A DNA stretch of 64,000 nucleotides from assembly GCA_038998585.1 (NCBI GenBank), contig JAVZGQ010000001.1:9684-73683 (forward strand), read 5' to 3'. Source of the stretch: Candidatus Aenigmatarchaeota archaeon. GTDB lineage: Archaea > Aenigmatarchaeota > Aenigmatarchaeia > CG10238-14 > SCSR01. Of the stretch, positions 1,756 to 56,826 are shown piece by piece. Every line of letters begins with the position of its first letter. The stretch's first letter is position 1. The position numbers and the translations under genes were made by a program. The notes beneath the pieces are model-generated. The model saw only the letters and a program-made list of their open reading frames with translations. It searched no databases and had not been told where the DNA came from.

Positions 1756-4700
1756 TCACATTTTTTGTAAAATTCCTACTTTAGGCTCAAACAAATCTCC
1801 TTTATTTTTTAACTCGTTCAAGATCTTCTCCACATCAAATTCTTTGAGTCCTTTATCTTTTGCAATTCTAAGTATATCTTCTTTTGGGATGGTATTCCCC
1901 ATAGTTTTTGACAATTCTTCTATGATATCCAGAACAACCCTTATCTTACCCCTTTCAGACGCAGTTGTTCTACCTTCAAGCCTATCAACATCAAACTTAC
2001 CAGTTTCGGCCTCAAATCCAAATTCTCTTAATGAGGCTTTCATCAAGTTTATGGCCCTTATGGCGTCTTCTCTTGTCACAACATCTCTTAACTGAACTTT
2101 TGCAGAAGCTTCCGCCAGTCTTATTAAAGCCTCATACTGTCTTAGAGTTATAGGAACAGCGGCCTCTTCAGCGCTGACTTTTTCTCTAAGAGACACAAAA
2201 AAGTTCTTTATTTCTTCCCCAGCTTCTCTAGATAGCTTTGGATGACAATTCTTTCTTGCGTAGGCTATATATTTCTTGAGAAATTCTGAATCTATTAATG
2301 GCCCCACATCTTCTTCTCCATAATGTCTTGATTTCAAAATGTGCTCAGCAACTTTAGCATCAATCTCAGGGTTTGGTATGTCACGTAAGGCAAACTTTAA
2401 ATCAAACCTCGAGAGCAAAGTTTCTGGAACATCTATTTGCTCTTTTATTGGTAAATAAGGGTCGAATCTCCCTAGCTTTGGGTTTCCACCGGCAAGAATC
2501 GAAGTCTGAGCCGGCAGGGTTGCTACTATGCTAGCTTTAGCTATGCTTATAGTTTGCTGCTCCATTGCTTCATGTAAAGCGACCTGATCACTTTTTTCCA
2601 CTTTTTCAAACTCATCTATAGCACAAAGTGATTTGTTACACATGACTAAAGCACCAGCTTCTAGAACCCAACCACCCAAAAATTCTTCATCTCTAACTAC
2701 AGTTGCGGTATTATGAATAATAATGCCATTTGCAACAAAACTGTGTTCATCTTCAACTGTTATATCATACACATACTCATAGTCTTTATTTTCTATTATC
2801 TCTACCTTTTCAATCCTATCCCAAAAAATATCTGATTCAACAAATTTTACAAGATCTTTAATTTGACCAAACTTATTCAACAATTTTTTCAAAAAGCTGC
2901 GTGTGGGTTTTCTTATATTTTTTTCATATTCGTAGCTTTTATATCCATAAAATTCTTTAGCGGATAGACCAAGTTCATTTCTAATTTCTCTTAATAAATT
3001 ACCAATTTCTGGAATTACATCAATATTTGAATTTTCTTTAGAACATTTTTCTATTATTTCGTCTAATTTTTTTGATTTGTATTTATCTCTAAATCCTATT
3101 TTTTTTCTAAAAATTTTAAGATTTTTCAAACCATTGATTACAAGAACATATTTCTTCCCAGAGTTAACCGTCCGACCTCTTAAAGATGTCCTGGGACTTT
3201 TTTCTCTCACTAAAGAAATTATGCCATATCTCAACAAGAGTAATTGCAATACTCTTATGAATTCTTTGCTATTTGACGAGAGCTCCACACGGTTTGATCT
3301 TTTAGAGTTTTTTTCAATTACAGAACCACTGGTATCAAATATTACCTGAAGATAAGTGGCTAAAATATTTTTTGGAAGTAGTGATAATTCTTCTGCGAAT
3401 TTCGACTCATCTGTTTCATATTCCTTCACAGCCCCATATTTACTGAAAGTCATTGGGTTGAAAATAAAATAAGGGACCCTGCTATGGTATGGTTCTATAC
3501 ATAATTCTTTCCAACACACAGTCCTAAAGCCCATTAAAAAATCATCACAGATTTTTAAAAACTTTATATCGAATCCTTCTCGATTGTTTCTTGGTATGCT
3601 TCTATCATTCACCACTGACCCTATCGGGTGTGTCAAATCTGAATTAATAGAAAACAAAGTATTTATTTTATATCCATGACATTTGCTCAAAACTATATTC
3701 TTTGGTAATTCACCCAACGACTTTGTCTGGTTAGATTTATTTTCATTTACAGAACAAATGCGTGGTGTAGCGATATATTCTCCTTGAATTAACTCAGATG
3801 CAGGCTTCCAGCATATTTTAGCATTTTTTATCACCGGAATCGGGTTTTCTGGAGTAACTATAACTTCTTTCCCTGTTTGAGTTACTACTTTAACCATTTT
3901 TTTTGGAGCTTTTAATTTCCAATATCTTGTTATTCTAAGTGGTTTTAACTTTAAATTTTCTTGGTCAAATGAAAGAATCTTTCTTGGGGAACCCTGTGTC
4001 ACAAAACCGTCTTCGATTTTTTCAAAATCTTTTTTTAGTTCCTCTTCCACTAACTTTCCTATTTGTATTAATGACCCATCTTCTAATTGCACTAAGGTCT
4101 CGTAAACTGTACACAGTCCTGCGGCGGTGACACCCTTACCAGACACATATTTCCCCCTGGGAATTAAGGTTGAAACCACTTTCATCAAAGCACTCTTAGC
4201 AGTTGAAGGATCCCCAACCAATAATATGTGAATATCACCCCTTACTCTAGATTTGTCCTTCTGCACGTGCTGCTCCCCACCAAACAACTGTAGTACAATA
4301 GCTTCTTTTATGTGTTCTAGTCCATACAAGCTTGGTGCGATGGATGTCACGAGCTTTGAGTATATTTCAGGATCTTTTGAAAATTCCACAATCATTTTCT
4401 CATCTTCAGGAGTTATTTCTAGCTCCTCCCACTCAACTTCCACACTTTCGACAGAATTAGCGTCAATGTAAATTTCAAGCTGCCTGGATCTTGTACCCTT
4501 AACTCTTCTTGGAATTTGCTTCAACACACCTACAACTTTTATCCTATTTCCAGGATCAGTTTTGTTCTGCATTTTTGGTGAAGTTAAATCTTCTTTTAAG
4601 AAGATCATTATCTCAGAAGGTCTTTCACCGCTTGTTATTTCGAAAGGCTCTTCAATTGTTATCCACCTAGCATCGTAAAGTTTTTGATCTATTAACTTGA

Positions 4701-5169
4701 AATTCCTTCTGTTTCCACATTGACAATCATTTGGTGGTATTATGAATCTTTCAGTTTGAATAACATTTATCTTAGCTCCACACTCAAGACATTGAAAAAT
4801 AGCTTCTGAGACCTCTGGTCTAATTTCACTCGCTCTTTTAACAATACCATCAACAGATATCAGCTTGCCTATGTGTTCTGCTCTTATGTTCCTTATCCTT
4901 ATTTGTCTTTCTTCTGGTAAGTTAAAAAACCTTATTCTTATGTTCGTGCTGCTCGGCAAATCTATTTGCTTCAGAGAATCTTCTATTGCTGTTAAAACTT
5001 CATCGGGATTTTCAAGCAAGTAGTCTGCAAGCTCAGGGTCGAATTTATCTAAAACTGAAAAATCAACTAGCAAGGATTTTTTGCCTTCGATTGTAGTTGC
5101 GACTAATTCATTGTAGAAATATTCTTTAAAAAATTCAGCAAACTTTTCAACTATTTCTCCTCTTTCCAT
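1756..5169 (-). CDS. mcm: MCM replicative helicase, intein-containing
   Basis: Walker A GDPSTAKS, Zn finger CxxC..CQC, arginine finger region, C-terminal wH; intein inserted after GKGVTAAGL and before TATVVRD; likely start is MERGEIVEKF at 5169 (the track's 5259 start overlaps TBP). Confidence 0.9.
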   Translation of the reverse strand: MERGEIVEKFAEFFKEYFYNELVATTIEGKKSLLVDFSVLDKFDPELADYLLENPDEVLTAIEDSLKQIDLPSSTNIRIRFFNLPEERQIRIRNIRAEHIGKLISVDGIVKRASEIRPEVSEAIFQCLECGAKINVIQTERFIIPPNDCQCGNRRNFKLIDQKLYDARWITIEEPFEITSGERPSEIMIFLKEDLTSPKMQNKTDPGNRIKVVGVLKQIPRRVKGTRSRQLEIYIDANSVESVEVEWEELEITPEDEKMIVEFSKDPEIYSKLVTSIAPSLYGLEHIKEAIVLQLFGGEQHVQKDKSRVRGDIHILLVGDPSTAKSALMKVVSTLIPRGKYVSGKGVTAAGLCTVYETLVQLEDGSLIQIGKLVEEELKKDFEKIEDGFVTQGSPRKILSFDQENLKLKPLRITRYWKLKAPKKMVKVVTQTGKEVIVTPENPIPVIKNAKICWKPASELIQGEYIATPRICSVNENKSNQTKSLGELPKNIVLSKCHGYKINTLFSINSDLTHPIGSVVNDRSIPRNNREGFDIKFLKICDDFLMGFRTVCWKELCIEPYHSRVPYFIFNPMTFSKYGAVKEYETDESKFAEELSLLPKNILATYLQVIFDTSGSVIEKNSKRSNRVELSSNSKEFIRVLQLLLLRYGIISLVREKSPRTSLRGRTVNSGKKYVLVINGLKNLKIFRKKIGFRDKYKSKKLDEIIEKCSKENSNIDVIPEIGNLLREIRNELGLSAKEFYGYKSYEYEKNIRKPTRSFLKKLLNKFGQIKDLVKFVESDIFWDRIEKVEIIENKDYEYVYDITVEDEHSFVANGIIIHNTATVVRDEEFLGGWVLEAGALVMCNKSLCAIDEFEKVEKSDQVALHEAMEQQTISIAKASIVATLPAQTSILAGGNPKLGRFDPYLPIKEQIDVPETLLSRFDLKFALRDIPNPEIDAKVAEHILKSRHYGEEDVGPLIDSEFLKKYIAYARKNCHPKLSREAGEEIKNFFVSLREKVSAEEAAVPITLRQYEALIRLAEASAKVQLRDVVTREDAIRAINLMKASLREFGFEAETGKFDVDRLEGRTTASERGKIRVVLDIIEELSKTMGNTIPKEDILRIAKDKGLKEFDVEKILNELKNKGDLFEPKVGILQKM
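2710..4113 (-). other. intein (468 aa) in the MCM ATPase domain, with a putative LAGLIDADG-type homing endonuclease core
   Basis: Begins with Cys after AAGL (CTVYETL...) and ends ...IIHN followed by T; removing it restores the conserved MCM sequence KGVTAAGLTATVVRD. Confidence 0.85.
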
Positions 5170-5251
5170 GACAATTATTTCTACGCACTTATTAATTTTA
5201 AGTTTTTTGGAATGATGAAAAAAATTAAAAAGTAAGTAAAATGTTCGCAGT

Positions 5252-5806
5252 TTATTCATTGATTATTGCTTTGATTTCCTTCAGCCTCTTGTAAACTTTA
5301 TCCAGGGCATTCTTCACATCTTTTACGCTTCTACCCCCAGTGCAAACTATTTTACCAGATCCAAAGAGCAAGAAAGCAACCTTCGGCTCATCCATCCTAT
5401 AAACCAATCCTGGAAACTGCTCTGGTTCATATTCTGAATTTTCAAGTTTGAGGGCAATTGTATCTAAGTTAAGATTTCCTTCTATCTTAGCTGAGGCCAC
5501 TATGTTTTCAACTTGTATTTTAAAATTTTTTGGGACTTGAACTCCCACACTTTTGATCACAGAAACAATTTTTTTAAAGACAGCGTTAACATCCTCTATG
5601 TTTCTTGCCCCGGTACATACTATCTTTCCAGAACTAAAGATTAGAGCAGCTGCTTTCGGCTCATCCATCCTATAAACCAATCCTGGAAACTGCTCTGGTT
5701 CATATTCCATTCCTTCAAGCTTTGAAACTATTTTTTCAAGAGGCACTTCCACATGTAAAGAAGCTGATGCAACTATATTTTCGATTTTTATTTTGAAATC
5801 TGACAT
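5252..5806 (-). CDS. tbp: TATA-box binding protein
   Basis: 184 aa with two internal direct repeats (…PEQFPGLVYRMDEPK…SGKIVCTG…, twice). Confidence 0.9.
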   Translation of the reverse strand: MSDFKIKIENIVASASLHVEVPLEKIVSKLEGMEYEPEQFPGLVYRMDEPKAAALIFSSGKIVCTGARNIEDVNAVFKKIVSVIKSVGVQVPKNFKIQVENIVASAKIEGNLNLDTIALKLENSEYEPEQFPGLVYRMDEPKVAFLLFGSGKIVCTGGRSVKDVKNALDKVYKRLKEIKAIINE

Positions 5807-6974: not shown

Positions 6975-7708
6975 ATGTTAATAGCAGGTATCGATGAGGC
7001 TGGTAGAAAACGATAAGTCTGGAGGATTTTCGTTTGCCATAAGGTGCTCTCATCGGTCCGATGGTCATAGCTGGAGTTGTGATAGACGATAAAGACGAGA
7101 AGAAACTTAAAAAAATAGGAGTGAAGGATTCTAAGCTTTTATCTCCAAGAAGAAGGGAAGAACTTGCCAAAAAAATAGAAGAAATAGCAAAGAATATTGT
7201 TGTTTTAAGAGTCCAGCCTTGCAAAATAGATTCTTATCGTGCTAAAGGTATAAATTTGGATAAAATAGAAGCCATGAAGATGGCAGAAATAATTGGGATG
7301 TTTGGTGCAAAAAAAGTTTTCATCGATTCTTTGGAACAAAATGCAAAAAAATTCGAAAATCTAATCAGGAGTTTTTTAAATGAAAGAGATCTTGAGCTAA
7401 TTGTTAAAAATTATTTGGACGAATCAATACCAGTCGTATCTGCAGCTAGTATAATTGCCAAAGTTGAACGCGATGCTGCAATAGAAGAGATAAAGAAAAA
7501 AGAGGGAACAGATTTTGGAGTGGGGTACAGTCATGATCCTAGAACTATAGAATTTGTTGAGAGATTGATAAAAGAAGGAAAAGGAAAACTTCCCTCTTAT
7601 GTTAGGCAATCGTGGATAACAACCCAAGAATTAAAGAAGAGATCTCTTCAACAAAAAATTAAAGATTTCTTTAAAAAAGACGAAAAAATTAAAAGGGAAA
7701 AAGTATGA
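6975..7708 (+). CDS. rnhB: ribonuclease HII, coding sequence interrupted by a 35-nt insertion (frame shifts after DEAGR)
   Basis: ATG at 6975 with an SD-like aggggtga; encodes MLIAGIDEAGR then KR-stop; the downstream frame resumes at 7043 with GALIGPMVIAGVV...; removing 7008-7042 restores the canonical DEAGRG-xx-IGP motif. Confidence 0.7.
7008..7042 (+). other. 35-nt insertion in rnhB forming a hairpin (aaacga-16nt-tcgttt) with an in-frame TAA
   Basis: 6-bp perfect stem aaacga/tcgttt; 35 nt is not a multiple of 3; flanking codons match conserved RNase HII residues. Confidence 0.6.
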
Positions 7709-21508: not shown

Positions 21509-22348
21509 TTGCTAGTAAAAATTATTTCCTTACAGTGTTTTTGCCCGACAAACTTTGGTTTAAATAGTAAAATGGTCAAATTAAAAACTGTGAAATTTAA
21601 CCAGAATTTAGCAACTATATATGGATATCTTTGCACAGATGGTTATGTAATAACTAATCCACCAAGTCAAAAACATAAGTATTATTGTATTGGTTTAAGA
21701 AATAAGAATGAAATAATTTTACAAGATTTTCAGAAGAATTTTGAAAAAGCATTTGGGATAAAACCAATAAAAGAAAAAGATAGATGTAAACTCCAAAATA
21801 AAAACTTATTTTTACAACTTACAAAAAATTTTTCATTCTATTCTGTATTCTATTCTGATAAGTGGGGTATGTCAAAACTTTCTTTAGAAGAATTAAAATG
21901 TCGGCTAAGAGCTTATTTTGATTGTGATGCATGAGTTGAGTTTCAAAAAGGTAAAAGTAGATCAATAAGATTAGAATCTATTAACAAAAATGGTCTAGAA
22001 CAAATTAGAACCTTTTTATTAAAGTTTGGGATTAAACCCTCTGATGCGAAGAAAATAAAGAATAGAAATATTTGGCATATTTATATTTGTAGTAAAGATA
22101 ATCTTCTAAGATTCAAAGAAAATATAGGATTTTTACATCAAGATAAAAATAAAAAAATCTTAGAAACTATCAACTCATATAAAACTTATGAATGGATAAT
22201 ACCAAATAAAAGAGAAGAATTTATCGAATTTATAAATAAAAAAGATAGGTTGAGAAACGACACTAAAGATATTAGATTCTTTTCAATACTCAAAACTAAT
22301 TTAATAAAATTAAGAGATAAGCTAATGGATTACAACTTTAATGTATAA
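21509..22348 (+). pseudogene. free-standing LAGLIDADG homing endonuclease gene interrupted by an in-frame TGA (21932-21934)
   Basis: First motif LATIYGYLCTDGYV; second motif LRAYFDCDA-stop-VEFQKGK; the same frame stays open 137 more codons to TAA at 22346. Confidence 0.6.
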
Positions 22349-22431
22349 ATATATGGCCCATGGAAGAATAATAGAGGGAGAATTTATTATTGTTTATCTT
22401 TTAAACAAAAAGAACTAATTAAATTAAGGAG

Positions 22432-23927
22432 GTGAGAGAGATAAGTCTAAAAGAAAAATTGAGAAAAATTAGGCCTTGCATATGGGAATTGCCAAAAGAA
22501 GCCAAGCAAGGTATGAAAGTACCAGCATGGCTTTTCTTGTCAGAAAAACTTTTAAAAGAAGTAGAAGACGGAGCAATAGAACAAGCAGCCAATGTTGCTT
22601 TTCTACCAGGAATTTACAAGCATAGCATAGCACTCCCCGATATGCATTTTGGATATGGATAGAGCTTAGCTTCCCAGAATTCCAATAGGGGGAGTGGCAG
22701 CATTAGACTACAAAGAAGGCGGCTTGAGCCCCGGTGGCATCGGATTGGATTTAGATCCACGAAATTGACATAAATTGTGGGGTTCGCCTCCTTCGCACAA
22801 ATCTAACAGTAGATCAAATTAGACCAAGGCTTAAAGATTTGCTAGAATCGATTTTCAACAATGTTCCCTCTGGAGTTGGTGAATTTGGTAAGATTAAGTT
22901 AAGCTTTTCTGAGCTTGATGAAGTTCTGTTTAAAGGAGCAAGGTGGGCTGTTGAAAAAGGCTATGGGACTGAAAAAGATTTGGAACATTTAGAGGAAAAC
23001 GGTTGTATTAAAGGCGCAAACCCAGAAAGAGTTTCTATCCAAGCTAAAAAGAGAGGTGCTCCTCAGCTTGGTACTTTAGGAGCAGGGAATCATTTTCTTG
23101 AAATTCAAGTTGTGAATAAAATATTTTTACCAGAAGTTGCGAAAGTTTTTGGAATAGAAAGAGAAGGACAGGTGTTTGTAGAAATCCATACAGGGTCAAG
23201 AGGGTTGGGACATCAAGTTTGTGCAGATTACCTAAAAATTTTAGAATCAAGGTTTAGAGATGAATTGAGAAAATTACCTGATCGTGAACTAGTTTATGCC
23301 CCTGCTGGAACTCAAGAATGTGAGGATTATTTTTCTGCAATGGCTTGTGCTGCAAACTATGCTTACACCAATCGACAAGTGATAACTCATTGGGTAAGAG
23401 AAAGTTTAGTTAAGGTATTAAAAATGAAACTAGAAGATATAGGGCTTGAAATAGTTTATGATCAAGCACACAATCGTGGATTTATCGAGGAACATAAAAT
23501 TAACGGTGAAAAGAGAAAAGTCTTTGTGCATAGAAAAGGTGCTAGTCTTGCCTTACCACCAAATCATCCCAATCTACCTCCAGAATATAGGAAGACAGGT
23601 CAGCCGGTATTAATTCCAGGTTCTATGGGGAGTGCATCATATGTATTGGTAGGTCAGGAAACAGGAGAAATAACATTTTATTCTACTGCTCATGGTGCAG
23701 GAAGAGTCGAATCAAGATCGAGAGCACTTAAACAAATAAGAGGAGAAGAAGTTGCGAAAATGCTCGAACAAAGAGGTATACTAACAAGGGCGGCAAGTTG
23801 GAAAGTTCTTGCAGAAGAAAGGCCAGAGGCATACAAGGAAATAGACGAAGTAGCACGAGTTAGCGATGAAGCTGGGATAGGAAAGCGTGTAGCTCGTTTT
23901 GTTCCTCTTGGAGTTGTAAAAGGTTAG
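22432..23927 (+). CDS. rtcB: tRNA-splicing ligase RtcB, coding sequence interrupted by two 19-nt insertions
   Basis: GTG start preceded by aggagg; N-terminal 76 aa end at ...DMHFGYG; the middle segment [22 protein letters not shown] is in the +1 frame; the C-terminal 362 aa ([10 protein letters not shown]...GAGNHFLEIQ...) are in the next frame. Confidence 0.75.
22660..22678 (+). other. 19-nt insertion #1 in rtcB (tagagcttagcttcccaga)
   Basis: Starts with an in-frame TAG; removal gives [11 protein letters not shown], matching the conserved RtcB sequence. Confidence 0.65.
22745..22763 (+). other. 19-nt insertion #2 in rtcB (ttggatttagatccacgaa), contains hairpin ggat-ttag-atcc
   Basis: Removal gives [14 protein letters not shown], matching conserved RtcB; the insert carries stops in both adjacent frames. 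Confidence 0.65.
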
Positions 23928-24339
23928 CTAAAGACAAAAACAGCTTTTTCTTAAATAATTTTTCTTTAATAGTTAATAGGTAACTTACTAAGCAAATGAC
24001 AGATATCTTTTTTACTTTTAATTTTTACAGCATACAAATTAATTCCTGCAGCAAATGGCTCAGCATTTTCTTTTAAGTCTGTGAAGAAGTCAAAGTTATC
24101 ATAAATGGAAAAACACTTATGGTAAAAAATAGATTTAGAACTCATTTGGTTTGGGTAGGAGTGATTAAAGTTTTAGAGATATGTGGGATTTCGAATGGAA
24201 AATAGACCTTTAATTTTTTGTATTCTTCAAAAAGTAGGATAAATCTCTTATTTTGGATGATAATGAAGTGTTTTAGAAAAGACTCTAGTTGACTACTATT
24301 TTTTTGAATTTATAAATTAAAAGTTTAAGCTCTAGAGTA

Positions 24340-24477
24340 TTATCTAAAACTAGCTTCCATTTTTTTCATCAATTTTTTAGAATGGTATTCGCACTCATAG
24401 CAAACCCACTCATCTAAAATTTTAGTTAAGCTTTTGTTTCCACAATTTGGACATCTCTTTATTTTAAATTCACACAT
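24340..24477 (-). CDS. small zinc-ribbon protein (45 aa), not in the ORF track
   Basis: MCEFKIKRCPNCGNKSLTKILDEWVCYECEYHSKK...; immediately downstream of archease. Confidence 0.3.
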   Translation of the reverse strand: MCEFKIKRCPNCGNKSLTKILDEWVCYECEYHSKKLMKKMEASFR

Positions 24478-24523: not shown

Positions 24524-24943
24524 TTAAATGTCCAGAATAACTCTAGCTTTCCAAATTTCGTTCTTTTTGATTTCCATTTTATGATATGTGCAGGCTTTAA
24601 CATGAGTTCTTGTTTCATGTTTTTCTCTATCCATAAATTCTCCTTTACATTTAGCTTTTAAGCTTAAATTTTTTTCATCAACTTTTACACTAAATTTTGA
24701 GAAGGCCAAATTTTCTGCATCTACAAAAACCAACAATTCATTCAACCAATTGAAGAGAAGTGATTGGAGGTCTTTCCCGTTCAATTCAATACTTCTTTCT
24801 ATTCTCGCTTTTACTTGTTTTGTGTTTATTATGACCTCAAACATCGCTAGTGCTGCATTGGTAAATAATTCATCCAGATTTTTACCATAAGCTTCAAAAG
24901 CAACATCACTCGTTGTTATGTCAACAAACTTAAATTTCTTCAT
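24524..24943 (-). CDS. archease (RtcB ligase cofactor)
   Basis: 139 aa; HTADI-type N-terminus (VDITTSDVAFEAYGKNLDELFTNAALAMFEVI) typical of archease. Confidence 0.8.
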   Translation of the reverse strand: MKKFKFVDITTSDVAFEAYGKNLDELFTNAALAMFEVIINTKQVKARIERSIELNGKDLQSLLFNWLNELLVFVDAENLAFSKFSVKVDEKNLSLKAKCKGEFMDREKHETRTHVKACTYHKMEIKKNEIWKARVILDI

Positions 24944-32553: not shown

Positions 32554-32651
32554 TGCAGGGGGTGGGATTCGAACCCACGAAGGCACTAAGCCACTAGGTT
32601 TCCTCTTAACACCTAAGCCTAGCCCGATTGACCAGACTACGGGACCCCTGC
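32554..32651 (-). tRNA. tRNA-Leu(UAG) with ~12-nt intron in the anticodon loop
   Basis: Acceptor GCAGGGG/CCCCUGC-A, T-arm GUGGG-UUCGAAU-CCCAC, long variable arm; anticodon stem CUAGG/CCUAG encloses 19 nt (CUUAGG + 12-nt intron + A). Confidence 0.7.
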
Positions 32652-34462: not shown

Positions 34463-34558
34463 TGCCCCCTCAGGGATTTGAACCCTGGTTCACAGCCCGA
34501 GAAGCTGTTGTCCTATCGATTTTACATAGTTCAATTAACCGGGCTAGACGAAGGGGGC
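34463..34558 (-). tRNA. tRNA-Glu(CUC) with ~19-nt insertion (intron) in the D-loop
   Basis: Acceptor GCCCCCU/AGGGGGC-A, T-arm CAGGG-UUCAAAU-CCCUG, anticodon arm ACAGC-UUCUCGG-GCUGU; D-stem GUCU/GGAC encloses 31 nt beginning AGCCCGGUUAAU (Glu-like D-loop). Confidence 0.55.
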
Positions 34559-35241: not shown

Positions 35242-35327
35242 TGGGCCTGGAGGGATTCGAACCCCCAACTCGAGGTTTCACCAAAAAACCGAAGCCTCGC
35301 CGGATATCCAAGTTTCCACACAGGCCC
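35242..35327 (-). tRNA. tRNA-Arg(UCG) with 12-nt intron after position 37
   Basis: Acceptor GGGCCUG/CAGGCCC-A, D-arm UGGA/UCCG, anticodon stem CGAGG/CCUCG enclosing CUUCGG + UUUUUUGGUGAA + A, T-arm GGGGG-UUCGAAU-CCCUC. Confidence 0.65.
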
Positions 35328-44395: not shown

Positions 44396-44500
44396 CGCCC
44401 TCGGTGGGATTTGAACCCACGACCTACCGGTTAACAGCCTCACCTTCCTTCTGGAATCGGGTGCTCTACCACTGAGCTTCCCCCGTATAACTACGAGGGC
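44396..44500 (-). tRNA. tRNA-Asn(GUU) with two short insertions (putative introns: ~14 nt after position 9, ~20 nt at 29/30)
   Basis: Acceptor GCCCUCG/CGAGGGC-G, D-arm GCUC-AGUGGUA-GAGC, loop CUGUUAA, 3' anticodon stem CCGGU, T-arm GUGGG-UUCAAAU-CCCAC; the 5' anticodon stem ACC..GG is split by CGAUUCCAGAAGGAAGGUGA; GUUAUACGGGGGAA lies between U8A9 and the D-stem; the leader carries a GCCCUCG-AGAGA-GCCCUCG direct repeat. Confidence 0.5.
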
Positions 44501-44569
44501 TCTCTCGAGGGCCCAACTAAATTAATATCTTATTTTTATTATATCTTATTTTCTTACATATTTTCAACT

Positions 44570-47795: not shown

Positions 47796-47894
47796 GCCTA
47801 GGTGGCCGAAATTTTAGTCGGTATTCCGGTCAAGGCGCCAGTCTGCTAAGCTGGTGGTCGAAAGACCGTGTGGGTTCAAATCCCACCCTAGGCG
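47796..47894 (+). tRNA. tRNA-Ser(GCU) with ~17-nt insertion (intron) in the D-loop
   Basis: Acceptor GCCUAGG/CCUAGGC-G, anticodon arm CCAGU-CUGCUAA-GCUGG, long variable arm GGUCGAAAGACC, T-arm GUGGG-UUCAAAU-CCCAC; the D region GUGGCCGA[AAUUUUAGUCGGUAUUC]CGGUCAAGGCG is interrupted relative to canonical Ser D-arms. Confidence 0.6.
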
Positions 47895-48243
47895 TGCCCA
47901 TTTATTCAATTCTCATTTTGGAAAATAGCTATTGTTTTAAAAATCTTTATTTGAATCTGATAAAAGAAAAATTGATGAAAACCAAAAGCATTAGAAAGTA
48001 TTTTCTTGAAAAGATGATTTGTAGATTAGTTTTTAAAAAATTACTTTCTGGTTACCTTTCTTTCTTGTCAAAAAGAACATGTATAATAAGAGAAAAGGTA
48101 AAAAATTAGAAAATCAGTTCTTTCAATGTTAGATCAAATATTCCTATAAAATAGATTTGGTTTGCGAAGAATAAAATGTTCTTTAGTTTTTGAGGAATGG
48201 AAAGGCTTAAATAATTAATTGTTTCTATTCTTACATAGATAAA

Positions 48244-51006: not shown

Positions 51007-51088
51007 GGGTCCGTAGTCTAACGGTAGGACGTCAAGTTTGCGGAACCCTGACACGGTGAAGAAAGGAGTTCAATTCTCCTCGGACCCA
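51007..51088 (+). tRNA. tRNA-Val(GAC) with 11-nt intron at position 29/30
   Basis: Acceptor GGGUCCG/CGGACCC-A, D-arm GUCU-AACGGUA-GGAC, 5' anticodon stem UCA[AGUUUGCGGAA]CC pairing with GGUGA, loop CUGACAC, T-arm AGGAG-UUCAAUU-CUCCU. Confidence 0.6.
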
Positions 51089-51096
51089 CTTTCTAA

Positions 51097-51183
51097 AGCC
51101 CCAGGCGGGATTTGCACCCGCGACCTCATGCTTACCATGCTTACGCAGATCTTATGCGCTCTAGCTAGCTGAGCTACTGGGGC
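51097..51183 (-). tRNA. tRNA-Thr(GGU) with 13-nt intron at position 29/30; unusual T-loop (G at position 55)
   Basis: Acceptor GCCCCAG/CUGGGGC-U, D-arm GCUC-AGCUAGCUA-GAGC, 5' anticodon stem CAU[AAGAUCUGCGUAA]GC pairing with GCAUG, loop AUGGUAA, T-arm GCGGG-UGCAAAU-CCCGC; tandem 9-nt GUAAGCAUG repeat. Confidence 0.5.
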
Positions 51184-56335: not shown

Positions 56336-56826
56336 ATGGTGTTTGAAGAAATTGAGATAAGAGAAGCAAGGAAAGAAGATTTGAAGATATTGTAAGGCTT
56401 TGGAAGAAGCTAACGGATTATCATCATAAGCTTAATAGCAAAAGATACTTATCTGGAGAAGAGGGGGAAGAAAAAATAAGGCAAAGCTTGGAAAAATTTT
56501 TTGAAAAGAATAGAAGGAATAGAAAATTTTTGGTGGCTGTTAAAAAAGGAAAGCTAATTGCAATGATGCTTGGTCTAATTCGCAAATCTCCAAGCTATTT
56601 GTATGGAAAGAGATTTGGTGAAATAGATGTAGCTTTCATTGAAGAAAAATTCAGGAGAAAGGGAATAGGAAGAAAGTTTTTTGAAGAATTGTTGAAATGG
56701 TTTAAGAAAAGAAAAATAAAGCTTATTGAAGTTTTGGTGGATTCTAAAAATGAGATAGGAATTTCAGCTTACAAAAATTATGGTTTTTCAGAAGTTTCGA
56801 AAAGAATGGCTCTTGAAGAAAGTTAA
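56336..56826 (+). pseudogene. GNAT family N-acetyltransferase with 1-nt frameshift near 56390
   Basis: The ATG frame gives MVFEEIEIREARKEDLKIL-stop; the +2 frame continues DIVRLWKKLTDYHH...RRKGIGRKFFEEL (acetyl-CoA binding motif). Confidence 0.5.

Follow-up and report, generated by a model that had tools for sequence, protein, structure and literature searches.

Probable tRNA-type mini-introns in the RNA ligase gene rtcB of an Aenigmatarchaeota archaeon

INTRODUCTION

The bulge-helix-bulge (BHB) motif consists of two 3-nt bulges with a 4-bp helix between them, and the splicing endonuclease cuts between bases 2 and 3 of each bulge (PMC2738675). Known archaeal pre-mRNA introns of this type are those of cbf5 and HVO_1309, and both the position of the cut and the handling of cbf5 pre-mRNA by the tRNA splicing system are established (PMC2738675, PMC10485636). 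Here we describe a 64,000-nt stretch of a Candidatus Aenigmatarchaeota archaeon genome (contig JAVZGQ010000001.1; hereafter the window), in which the RNA ligase gene rtcB is interrupted by two 19-nt inserts. These inserts are very probably tRNA-type BHB introns in the rtcB pre-mRNA. A further insert of 35 nt interrupts the RNase HII gene rnhB.

The closest described system is the cbf5 intron of Desulfurococcales and Sulfolobales (Watanabe 2002; Yokobori 2009, PMC2738675), which, like the rtcB inserts, has a relaxed BHB inside a protein open reading frame (ORF) and is cut by the tRNA-splicing endonuclease. It lies in the codon of a catalytic residue and in phase 1, as do the inserts at the rtcB Phe codons, and it shares with the rtcB and rnhB introns a lineage-specific presence or absence and a record of gene-prediction errors. 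Unlike cbf5, the present case concerns rtcB and rnhB as hosts, DPANN archaea (Aenigmatarchaeota), two introns in one gene (rtcB), lengths of 16-37 nt and the pathway's own ligase gene. The cbf5 intron is experimentally proven, whereas the rtcB and rnhB introns are predicted. The BHB element of HVO_1309 in Haloferax volcanii is likewise an mRNA substrate of the archaeal splicing endonuclease, and its flanks are re-ligated (PMC7714728; PMC10485636). Its host differs in being a euryarchaeon with an alpha2 enzyme. The HVO_1309 element is located in the 5' region, outside the ORF.

Non-canonical and multiple tRNA introns, removed by a splicing endonuclease (EndA) of broad specificity, have the same motif, size range (11-19 nt in the window) and bulge bases as the rtcB inserts and can also occur several per gene (PMC5829648, PMC4090602). 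The host RNA of the rtcB inserts differs in being an mRNA, with no mature tRNA body that aids recognition and with a frame that relies on exact excision. In XBP1/HAC1 splicing (IRE1 with RtcB or Trl1), a tiny frameshifting mRNA intron (26 nt in XBP1) is likewise cut in paired stem-loops, and the frame switch gives the active protein; the XBP1 exons are joined by RtcB in metazoans, as proposed here for rtcB. That system differs in using IRE1 in place of EndA, another motif and stress regulation (XBP1), and its substrate is not the ligase's own mRNA. In phages, free-standing endonucleases take part in collaborative homing with group I introns (psbA/F-CphI; T4-like nrd genes). There, too, an endonuclease gene stands beside an essential gene whose conserved core is split by an ORF-less intron, but the phage introns are self-splicing group I introns, whereas the rtcB inserts would be protein-spliced BHB mini-introns and the link is a co-occurrence in four lineages.

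RESULTS

Reading frame of rtcB

In a three-frame translation of rtcB, frame 1 encodes RtcB up to ...DMHFGYG (exon 1) and then meets a TAG. Frame 2 encodes the next 22 residues (exon 2) and continues into LDLDPRN and a stop, and frame 3 encodes the remaining RtcB to the stop codon at 23925-23927. Taking out two 19-nt segments gives an RtcB of 485 amino acids (aa), which aligns over its full length with intact Aenigmatarchaeota RtcB proteins of 482-485 aa at 79-80% identity; the gene is thus readable only with both segments skipped, as the initial annotation had stated. The PF01139 label of the spliced protein is that of the precomputed domains of the matched relatives. A tblastn search of the window with the spliced protein returned exactly three pieces. 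Exact-sequence look-ups of the archease encoded in the window and of the 362-aa RtcB fragment gave no recorded match.

The intron boundaries were set by protein homology alone, prior to any inspection of RNA structure. All 13 aligned close relatives have Phe at both junctions (GYG-F-PIGG and GIG-F-DINCG). The initial annotation had correctly recognised two 19-nt inserts, but its limits (22660-22678 and 22745-22763) were one base off and would give Ile where the 13 relatives have Phe. Moving both limits by one base places the introns at 22661-22679 and 22746-22764, and each junction then reads GGA T^TT, Gly-Phe (^ marks a splice position). Over residues 1-76, the colinearity of exon 1 with RtcB relatives is 100%, and many of these relatives likewise start with Val/GTG; the active-site Cys of DINCG is encoded in exon 3. 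The predicted spliced junctions are ...TATGGAT^TTCCAATAGG... (GGAT^TTCCA) and ...ATCGGAT^TTGACATAAA... (GGAT^TTGAC).

Other accounts of the interrupted frame were considered and dropped. An origin of intron 2 by tandem duplication (8/19 bases match the 19 nt that follow) and two-step deletions yielding Phe-Pro at the first site both gave way to a single 19-nt excision. Stop-codon recoding had been prompted by an in-frame TGA in a LAGLIDADG gene and by two pairs of same-frame ORFs; stop usage in the window is normal (TAA 20, TGA 16, TAG 11), and the pairs are TGA-ATG junctions. The rtcB inserts are not inteins, being 19 nt long, frame-shifting and stop-carrying, and self-splicing group I or II introns, whose catalytic RNA core spans a few hundred nucleotides, were rejected on the lengths of 19 and 35 nt and the lack of an Rfam match there.

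Fit to the BHB motif

The BHB template requires exon 1 to end with four central-helix bases and two bulge bases and exon 2 to start with one bulge base; the intron supplies one bulge base, an inner hairpin, four central-helix bases and two bulge bases. Both rtcB inserts divide as 1+4+4+4+4+2 = 19 nt (bulge, helix, loop, helix, central helix, bulge). Intron 1 reads A-GAG(C)-ttag-(C)TTC-CCAG-AA with a central helix (A)TGG/CCA(G), in which TGG 22656-58 pairs with CCA 22674-76 and A22655.G22677 is a mismatch. Its bulges are A,T^A (22659-61) on the 5' side and A,A^T (22678-80) on the 3' side, and the inner helix pairs GAG 22662-64 with TTC 22671-73. The minimum free energy (MFE) fold of intron 1 is BHB-like at -9.8 kcal/mol and contains an additional 5-bp outer helix, TTGGA 22649-53 with TCCAA 22681-85.

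Intron 2 reads T-GGAT-ttag-ATCC-ACGA-AA with a central helix TCG(G)/(A)CGA, in which three of four pairs form (TCG 22740-42 with CGA 22760-62) and G22743.A22759 is a mismatch. The outer helix has 2 bp (CA 22738-39 with TG 22766-67), and the bulges are A,T^T (22744-46) and A,A^T (22763-65). All four pairs of the inner helix form (GGAT 22747-50 with ATCC 22755-58), closed by the loop TTAG. The initial annotation had found no BHB around either insert because its boundaries were one base off; at the boundaries that restore Phe, intron 2 is near-canonical and intron 1 relaxed.

The specificity of the fit was evaluated against the window itself. Positions scoring at least as well as intron 1 make up 2.9% of the window and those scoring at least as well as intron 2 make up 0.43%, so the joint probability is about 1e-4. 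Registers moved by 1-6 nt from the homology-set boundaries gave no BHB fit. Among all nearby excisions that restore the frame, the one consistent with homology scores highest for the BHB at site 2 and shares the highest score at site 1. Under this scoring, the BHB fit at the homology-set boundaries is not attributable to chance. As a discovery tool, a scan by structure alone was abandoned: its ORF-fusion form gave 4078 matches across the window, and a strict form gave 8042 matches on both strands, compared with shuffles at about 2800 per strand. So small a motif cannot be discovered by structure alone, and homology is therefore needed.

Inserts in relatives

The first survey covered 160 rtcB loci of genomic and metagenomic origin, in which tblastn matches broken into separate high-scoring segment pairs were flagged; it seemed to show only intact genes. 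This was misleading, since tblastn aligns straight across an insert of 18 or 21 nt that contains an in-frame stop; when the same loci were scanned by anchor distance, inserts were recovered in L011, L017 and L096 (labels of this form denote loci of relatives). When the 76-aa exon-1 peptide was compared with a protein database, 69 short-ORF clusters were found in other metagenomes, on contigs of up to 204 kb and from many samples. In 46 of the clusters the ORF ends directly after HFGY (44 of these read on into Ser), and in 9 it ends a little past GG[IV]G. One more cluster, ending HFGYG, may share the position of the window's intron 1.

The DNA of 9 distinct relatives contains rtcB inserts of 16-29 nt with differing but compensating helices. 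These occupy site 2, shared with window intron 2 (L161, L164 and L170), and a site 1a, from which window intron 1 (site 1b) lies 4 nt downstream. The site-2 intron of L161 is identical to window intron 2 at 17 of 19 bases, and one of the changes keeps the pair (A-T to G.T). At sites 1a and 2, the inserts of relatives form four or three of the four central pairs and inner helices of 3-9 bp, which differ in sequence yet remain complementary: GCT.../...AGC, extended to 9 bp, at site 1a, and GGAT/ATCC, GGGT/ATCC, GAG/CTC and GGCC/GGCC at site 2. The central helix at site 2 covaries with the exon codon, as TCGG/CCGA in L164 versus TTGG/CCAA in L170. One further locus, L171, was chimeric or an unrelated fusion and was ignored.

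For a count of pairs, 12 distinct introns (rtcB sites 1a, 1b and 2; rnhB) were trimmed to the template columns and aligned without gaps. Of the template cells, 91.7% are paired versus 53.5% in shuffles, and none of 500 shuffles reached the observed value. Sliding the 3' partner by 1-3 columns reduced pairing to 32-54%. Changes on both sides were found in 9/9 template pairs, with the inner helix 100% and the central helix 93.8% paired.

Once spliced, rtcB encodes 482-486 aa in the window and in L161, L162 and L168. Pairwise ratios of nonsynonymous to synonymous substitution (dN/dS) among these genes are 0.09-0.13, both for the whole gene and for the part past codon 105 (dS about 1.5-2). The roughly 390 downstream codons of these four lineages contain no additional stop or frameshift. 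With dN/dS at about 0.1, the interrupted rtcB genes are functional and under purifying selection.

The RNase HII intron

On inspection of the gaps between ORFs, rnhB was found to be split after MLIAGIDEAGR. Its 35-nt insert forms a central helix TGGT/GCCA with 4/4 pairs and a 6-bp inner helix AAACGA/TCGTTT. The MFE fold, -27.9 kcal/mol for a 76-nt segment and -21.0 for a 63-nt segment, contains the bulge and a long exon-exon outer helix. The predicted spliced junction is ...GCTGGTAG^AGGTGCTCTC... (GGTAG^AGGTG). Relatives have introns at the same site with compensating changes, of 37 nt in L172 and 22 nt in L173; the inner helix of L173 differs (GAAATT/AATTTC), and the fourth central pair is U.G in the window, C-G in L172 and G-C in L173. 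These features suggest that the rnhB insert would be removed by the same BHB splicing mechanism as the rtcB introns.

The motif DE[AVS]G[RK]G is absent from 49 of the best 120 RNase HII clusters, and most of the motif-less clusters start at a Met just past the intron or at an ATG within GAT-GAG that reads through the intron. About 45 of the 120, or roughly 40% of these closest clusters, have lost the N-terminus. The public annotation MEM5766037.1 (218 aa), 100% identical to the RNase HII of the window, starts past the intron and is without the catalytic N-terminus. Pfam scans of about 50 further window ORFs gave no other N- or C-terminally truncated domain, in a scan that is blind to in-frame introns without stops. 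The two rtcB introns and the rnhB intron are probably all that such a scan could detect in the window.

tRNA introns

The window has a G+C content of 33.5% and contains an archaeal RNase P RNA. Its tRNA genes were called with Rfam and ARAGORN and supplemented by reading the sequences by hand. Hand reading found short introns of 11-19 nt in seven of the eight tRNA genes recognised, in line with the heavy use of tiny tRNA introns described in the initial annotation. Several occupy non-canonical positions (29/30, 8/9 and the D-loop). The acceptor 5' half of tRNA-Asn had seemed to be missing because this gene contains two introns. The 19-nt one forms a perfect BHB (A-TTCC-agaa-GGAA-GGTG-AG) with the same 1+4+4+4+4+2 layout as the rtcB introns. 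Bulges of the types AT^N and AA^N (e.g., AT^A and AA^G) recur in the tRNA introns, as in rtcB. A probable tRNA-Ser(GCT) with a D-loop intron was overlooked by both ARAGORN and Rfam.

Mobile elements and other disrupted genes

A degenerate, free-standing LAGLIDADG gene lies directly upstream of rtcB, and archease, encoding the RtcB cofactor, lies downstream; Pfam matches support both, as initially annotated. The LAGLIDADG gene contains a TGA at 21932-34, where orthologues have Trp (TGG to TGA), and a TAA at 22346-48, and it overlaps the rtcB start by its final codons (GTGA), an arrangement found also in intact orthologues. The orthologues (L161, L167, L168/L169) are 278-291 aa long, share 64-65% identity and all stand beside an rtcB with a site-1 intron. 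In a small sample of related lineages, the gene is present in four of seven distinct intron-bearing loci versus none of about 27 intron-less loci with a site-1 anchor match. Three loci (L162, L017 and L011) have the site-1 intron without the gene.

In L014, L170 and L167, an intein of about 500 aa occupies the active-site Cys of RtcB (DIN^C), 11 nt past site 2. Those of L014 and L170 carry LAGLIDADG domains, and L170 combines the intein with an 18-nt site-2 intron. This stretch of rtcB is, judging from these loci, a target of several kinds of mobile element, and collaborative homing between the LAGLIDADG endonuclease and the mini-introns is possible. The earlier suggestion of a hotspot for invasion and repair is borne out in part, by the inteins at DIN^C and the LAGLIDADG orthologues found only beside site-1-intron rtcB.

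Between rtcB and archease (23966-24477, minus strand), a 45-aa zinc-ribbon ORF (24340-24477) has weak matches to IS1595/TnpB-like zinc ribbons, and two short adjoining open stretches lie in different frames (24145-24309 and 23969-24172). These may be a mobile-element remnant or a split small gene.

The MCM helicase ORF (1759-5262, minus strand, 1168 aa) reads, on translation, as containing an intein-like insertion that begins after GKGVTAAGL (CTVYETLV...) and ends ...IIIHN before TATVVRDEE. A GNAT acetyltransferase gene (56340-56400, plus strand, in the upstream part of the ORF 56356-56823) appears to have a simple -1 frameshift in a T-run (...REARKED/FEDIVRLW...) and no insert; it may be a homopolymer error or a real frameshift. 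Not every gene disruption in the window is therefore an intron.

Table 1. Features of the window and corresponding features in relatives (^, splice position; locus names precede coordinates in relatives).
Feature	Position	Strand	Description
rtcB	22432-23927	+	split across three reading frames
rtcB exon 1	22432-22660	+	GTG start; ends after base 1 of the Phe77 codon (...TAT GGA T^)
rtcB intron 1 (site 1b)	22661-22679	+	19 nt, AGAGCTTAGCTTCCCAGAA; excision restores GYG-F-PIGG; relaxed BHB
rtcB exon 2	22680-22745	+	^TT CCA ... ATC GGA T^; residues 77-99
rtcB intron 2 (site 2)	22746-22764	+	19 nt, TGGATTTAGATCCACGAAA; near-canonical hBHBh'; excision restores GIG-F-DINCG
rtcB exon 3	22765-23927	+	^TT GAC ATA AAT TGT ...; stop codon included
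rtcB site 1a inserts of relatives			TAT^...^GGN TTT; L167 16 nt; L161, L017 18 nt; L168 20 nt; L011/L096 21 nt; L162 29 nt
rtcB site 2 inserts of relatives			GGAT^...^TT GAY; L161 19 nt; L164 17 nt; L170 18 nt
rnhB (RNase HII)	6975-7708	+	spliced product matches Pfam RNase_HII, profile 1-199 of 199
rnhB BHB intron (predicted)	7007-7041	+	35 nt, AAAACGATAAGTCTGGAGGATTTTCGTTTGCCATA; between GGT AG^ and ^A GGT, inside catalytic GIDEAGR^G
Archease, RtcB cofactor	24524-24943	-	intact; Pfam Archease, profile 1-136 of 136, E = 1.5e-44
LAGLIDADG_3 homing-endonuclease gene	21572-22435	+	free-standing, degenerate; Pfam match; two in-frame stops
Intact LAGLIDADG orthologues	L161 1668-2504; L167 1651-2526; L168 1660-2499		directly upstream of rtcB
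RtcB inteins of relatives	L014 2498-4000; L170 from ~2830; L167 2850-4616		at DIN^C
Intron-rich tRNA loci	44403-44510 (-), 51007-51088 (+), 51097-51183 (-), 35242-35327 (-), 32554-32651 (-), 34463-34558 (-)
tRNA-Asn	44403-44480	-	two introns, 14 and 19 nt
tRNA-Val			intron of 11 nt at 29/30
tRNA-Thr			intron of 13 nt at 29/30
tRNA-Arg, tRNA-Leu			introns of 12 nt at 37/38
Probable tRNA-Ser(GCT)	~47796-47900	+	~14-nt D-loop intron (GCCGAA^ATTTTAGTCGGTAT^TCCGG)

DISCUSSION

We infer from these data how the rtcB transcript would be processed, including the cleavage and ligation steps, the enzymes involved and the resulting feedback loop. Local folding of the transcript would place each splice site in a 3-nt bulge beside a short central helix. 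The tRNA-splicing endonuclease EndA would cut past base 2 of the bulge on each side, leaving a 2',3'-cyclic phosphate and a 5'-OH, and RtcB with archease would join the exons, producing GGA-TTT (Gly-Phe) at both junctions and an open frame of 485 codons. Unspliced mRNA would give a peptide of only 76 aa, and mRNA spliced at intron 1 only would give about 108 aa. Since RtcB would join the exons of its own mRNA, the production of new RtcB would depend on pre-existing RtcB, a positive feedback loop with cytoplasmic inheritance.

The supply of the enzymes is suggested by the tRNA genes. Because these contain introns, several of them non-canonical, the cell must own an endonuclease that accepts non-canonical sites, and it needs RtcB; the presence of EndA in the genome is thereby implied. 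DPANN EndAs with an L3 loop have been linked to disrupted tRNA genes (PMC5829648).

Several results weigh against removal of the inserts by BHB splicing. Intron 1 is the least canonical of the 14 introns examined, with three of four central pairs, a G.U pair within its 3-bp inner helix and two unpaired bases that displace its outer helix. No orthologue of site 1b was found in the DNA fetched from any relative. For intron 2, the BHB conformer (-1.6 kcal/mol) competes with an alternative MFE fold (-7.2 kcal/mol) and has a pair probability of 0.08, so that cleavage would require capture by the enzyme. A 14-nt frameshifting insert in L166 (...GGAATTGAAAAAACACAGTCGGGTTCGAC..., about 2715-2735, a few bases upstream of site 2) fits no BHB in any register that gives GG[IV]GF. 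The count over 12 introns pools four sites with a register taken from protein homology and tests the fit to the template more than evolution at a single site. No EndA was found among the ORFs of the 64-kb window scanned with Pfam. A tblastn search with the spliced RtcB found no second rtcB copy in the window, and an intact copy could lie elsewhere in the genome.

A complementary explanation, not strictly a rival of splicing, is that the inserts are spliced but are kept mainly as immunity against a homing endonuclease (LAGLIDADG or the RtcB intein) that cuts intron-less rtcB and whose target the mini-introns would disrupt, the introns having spread with the endonuclease gene. The restriction of LAGLIDADG orthologues to the site-1-intron loci L161, L167 and L168/L169, with none in about 27 intron-less loci, fits this explanation, as do the two nonsense codons in the window's LAGLIDADG gene, which are expected late in a homing cycle, and the LAGLIDADG-containing inteins so close to site 2 in L014 and L170. 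But the site-1 intron also occurs without an endonuclease gene (L162, L017 and L011), no such gene stands beside the rnhB intron, and in L170 the site-2 intron coexists with the intein and so does not exclude it. The sample is also small and phylogenetically non-independent, and we regard immunity as the main reason for retention as rather unlikely.

The other explanations dispense with splicing. If rtcB were a pseudogene, inactivated by two small insertions, its function would be supplied by another copy or be dispensable. The gene is indeed untranslatable as it stands in the DNA, the window contains other broken genes (the decaying LAGLIDADG gene and GNAT with its 1-nt frameshift), and just 64 kb of the genome is visible. 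Against this, dN/dS is about 0.1 even in the downstream part, whose frame is intact in four lineages, dozens of 90%-identity clusters have interruptions at these two sites, and the inserts retain the BHB fold through compensating changes. The many tRNA introns of the window need RtcB, and neither the window nor a genome scan of the metagenome-assembled genomes behind L011 and L017 gave a second rtcB. Loss of function, which the initial annotation had listed among its options, is on these grounds very improbable.

Programmed translational bypassing or frameshifting over the 19-nt gaps, of the T4 gene 60 type, was another of those options. In T4 gene 60, a TAG stands right after the take-off codon of the bypass gap. 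Both window gaps follow a GGA codon, the first with a TAG directly after it as in gene 60, and each gap holds a small hairpin. However, the take-off and landing codons are not matched: the window gaps run from GGA to AGA and from GGA to GAA, and the site-1 gaps of relatives run from TAT to CAA, TAA or CCA over 16-29 nt. Some gap lengths are multiples of three, for which a hop would be needless except to avoid a stop. In the covarying helices, the 3' part of the insert pairs with exon bases, as in the BHB central helix, a pairing that is useless to bypassing, and an element of the same type lies 32 nt from the rnhB start. Bypassing is slightly less credible still than a pseudogene. An assembly or sequencing artefact, which the origin from a metagenome-assembled genome and the one homopolymer-type frameshift elsewhere in the window might suggest, can practically be dismissed, as independent JGI, ENA, NCBI and Logan assemblies carry homologous, non-identical inserts at the same codons. 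Of the options first listed, mRNA mini-introns are the one that agrees with the BHB fit and the compensating inserts of relatives, with a relaxed motif for intron 1, as had been foreseen.

A literature search, incomplete in its coverage, found no earlier report of introns in rtcB or RNase HII mRNA or of mRNA splicing in DPANN archaea. The host genes, the phylum, the two introns in one gene, their small size, their breadth in uncultured relatives and the self-dependence of the ligase appear to be new. As a tentative broader picture, which we consider possible but doubtful, a clade of Aenigmatarchaeota would make its sole RNA ligase from an mRNA that needs that ligase for one or two splicing events, so that RtcB expression would sustain itself. 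The mini-introns would then be selfish invaders of active-site codons in rtcB and rnhB and, at rtcB, would be spread or retained with a LAGLIDADG endonuclease, an archaeal BHB-intron counterpart of collaborative homing in phages.

Splicing of archaeal protein genes was previously represented by two cases in more than 20 years, cbf5 and HVO_1309, to which rtcB and rnhB would add two genes. Standard annotation truncates or drops such genes, as seen in the lost N-terminus of RNase HII and in rtcB exon 1, which is called as a separate ORF of 72-79 aa in many relatives; the splice junctions are predicted here to the single base. A homing endonuclease and inteins at the same 100 nt offer a testable route to the gain of protein-spliced introns. 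The self-dependence of the ligase would be a natural test case for feedback and for the tolerance of introns under coupled transcription and translation. The window has three such introns within 64 kb, and dozens of uncultured relatives have homologous ones; BHB introns in mRNA may thus recur across the intron-rich genomes of DPANN archaea.

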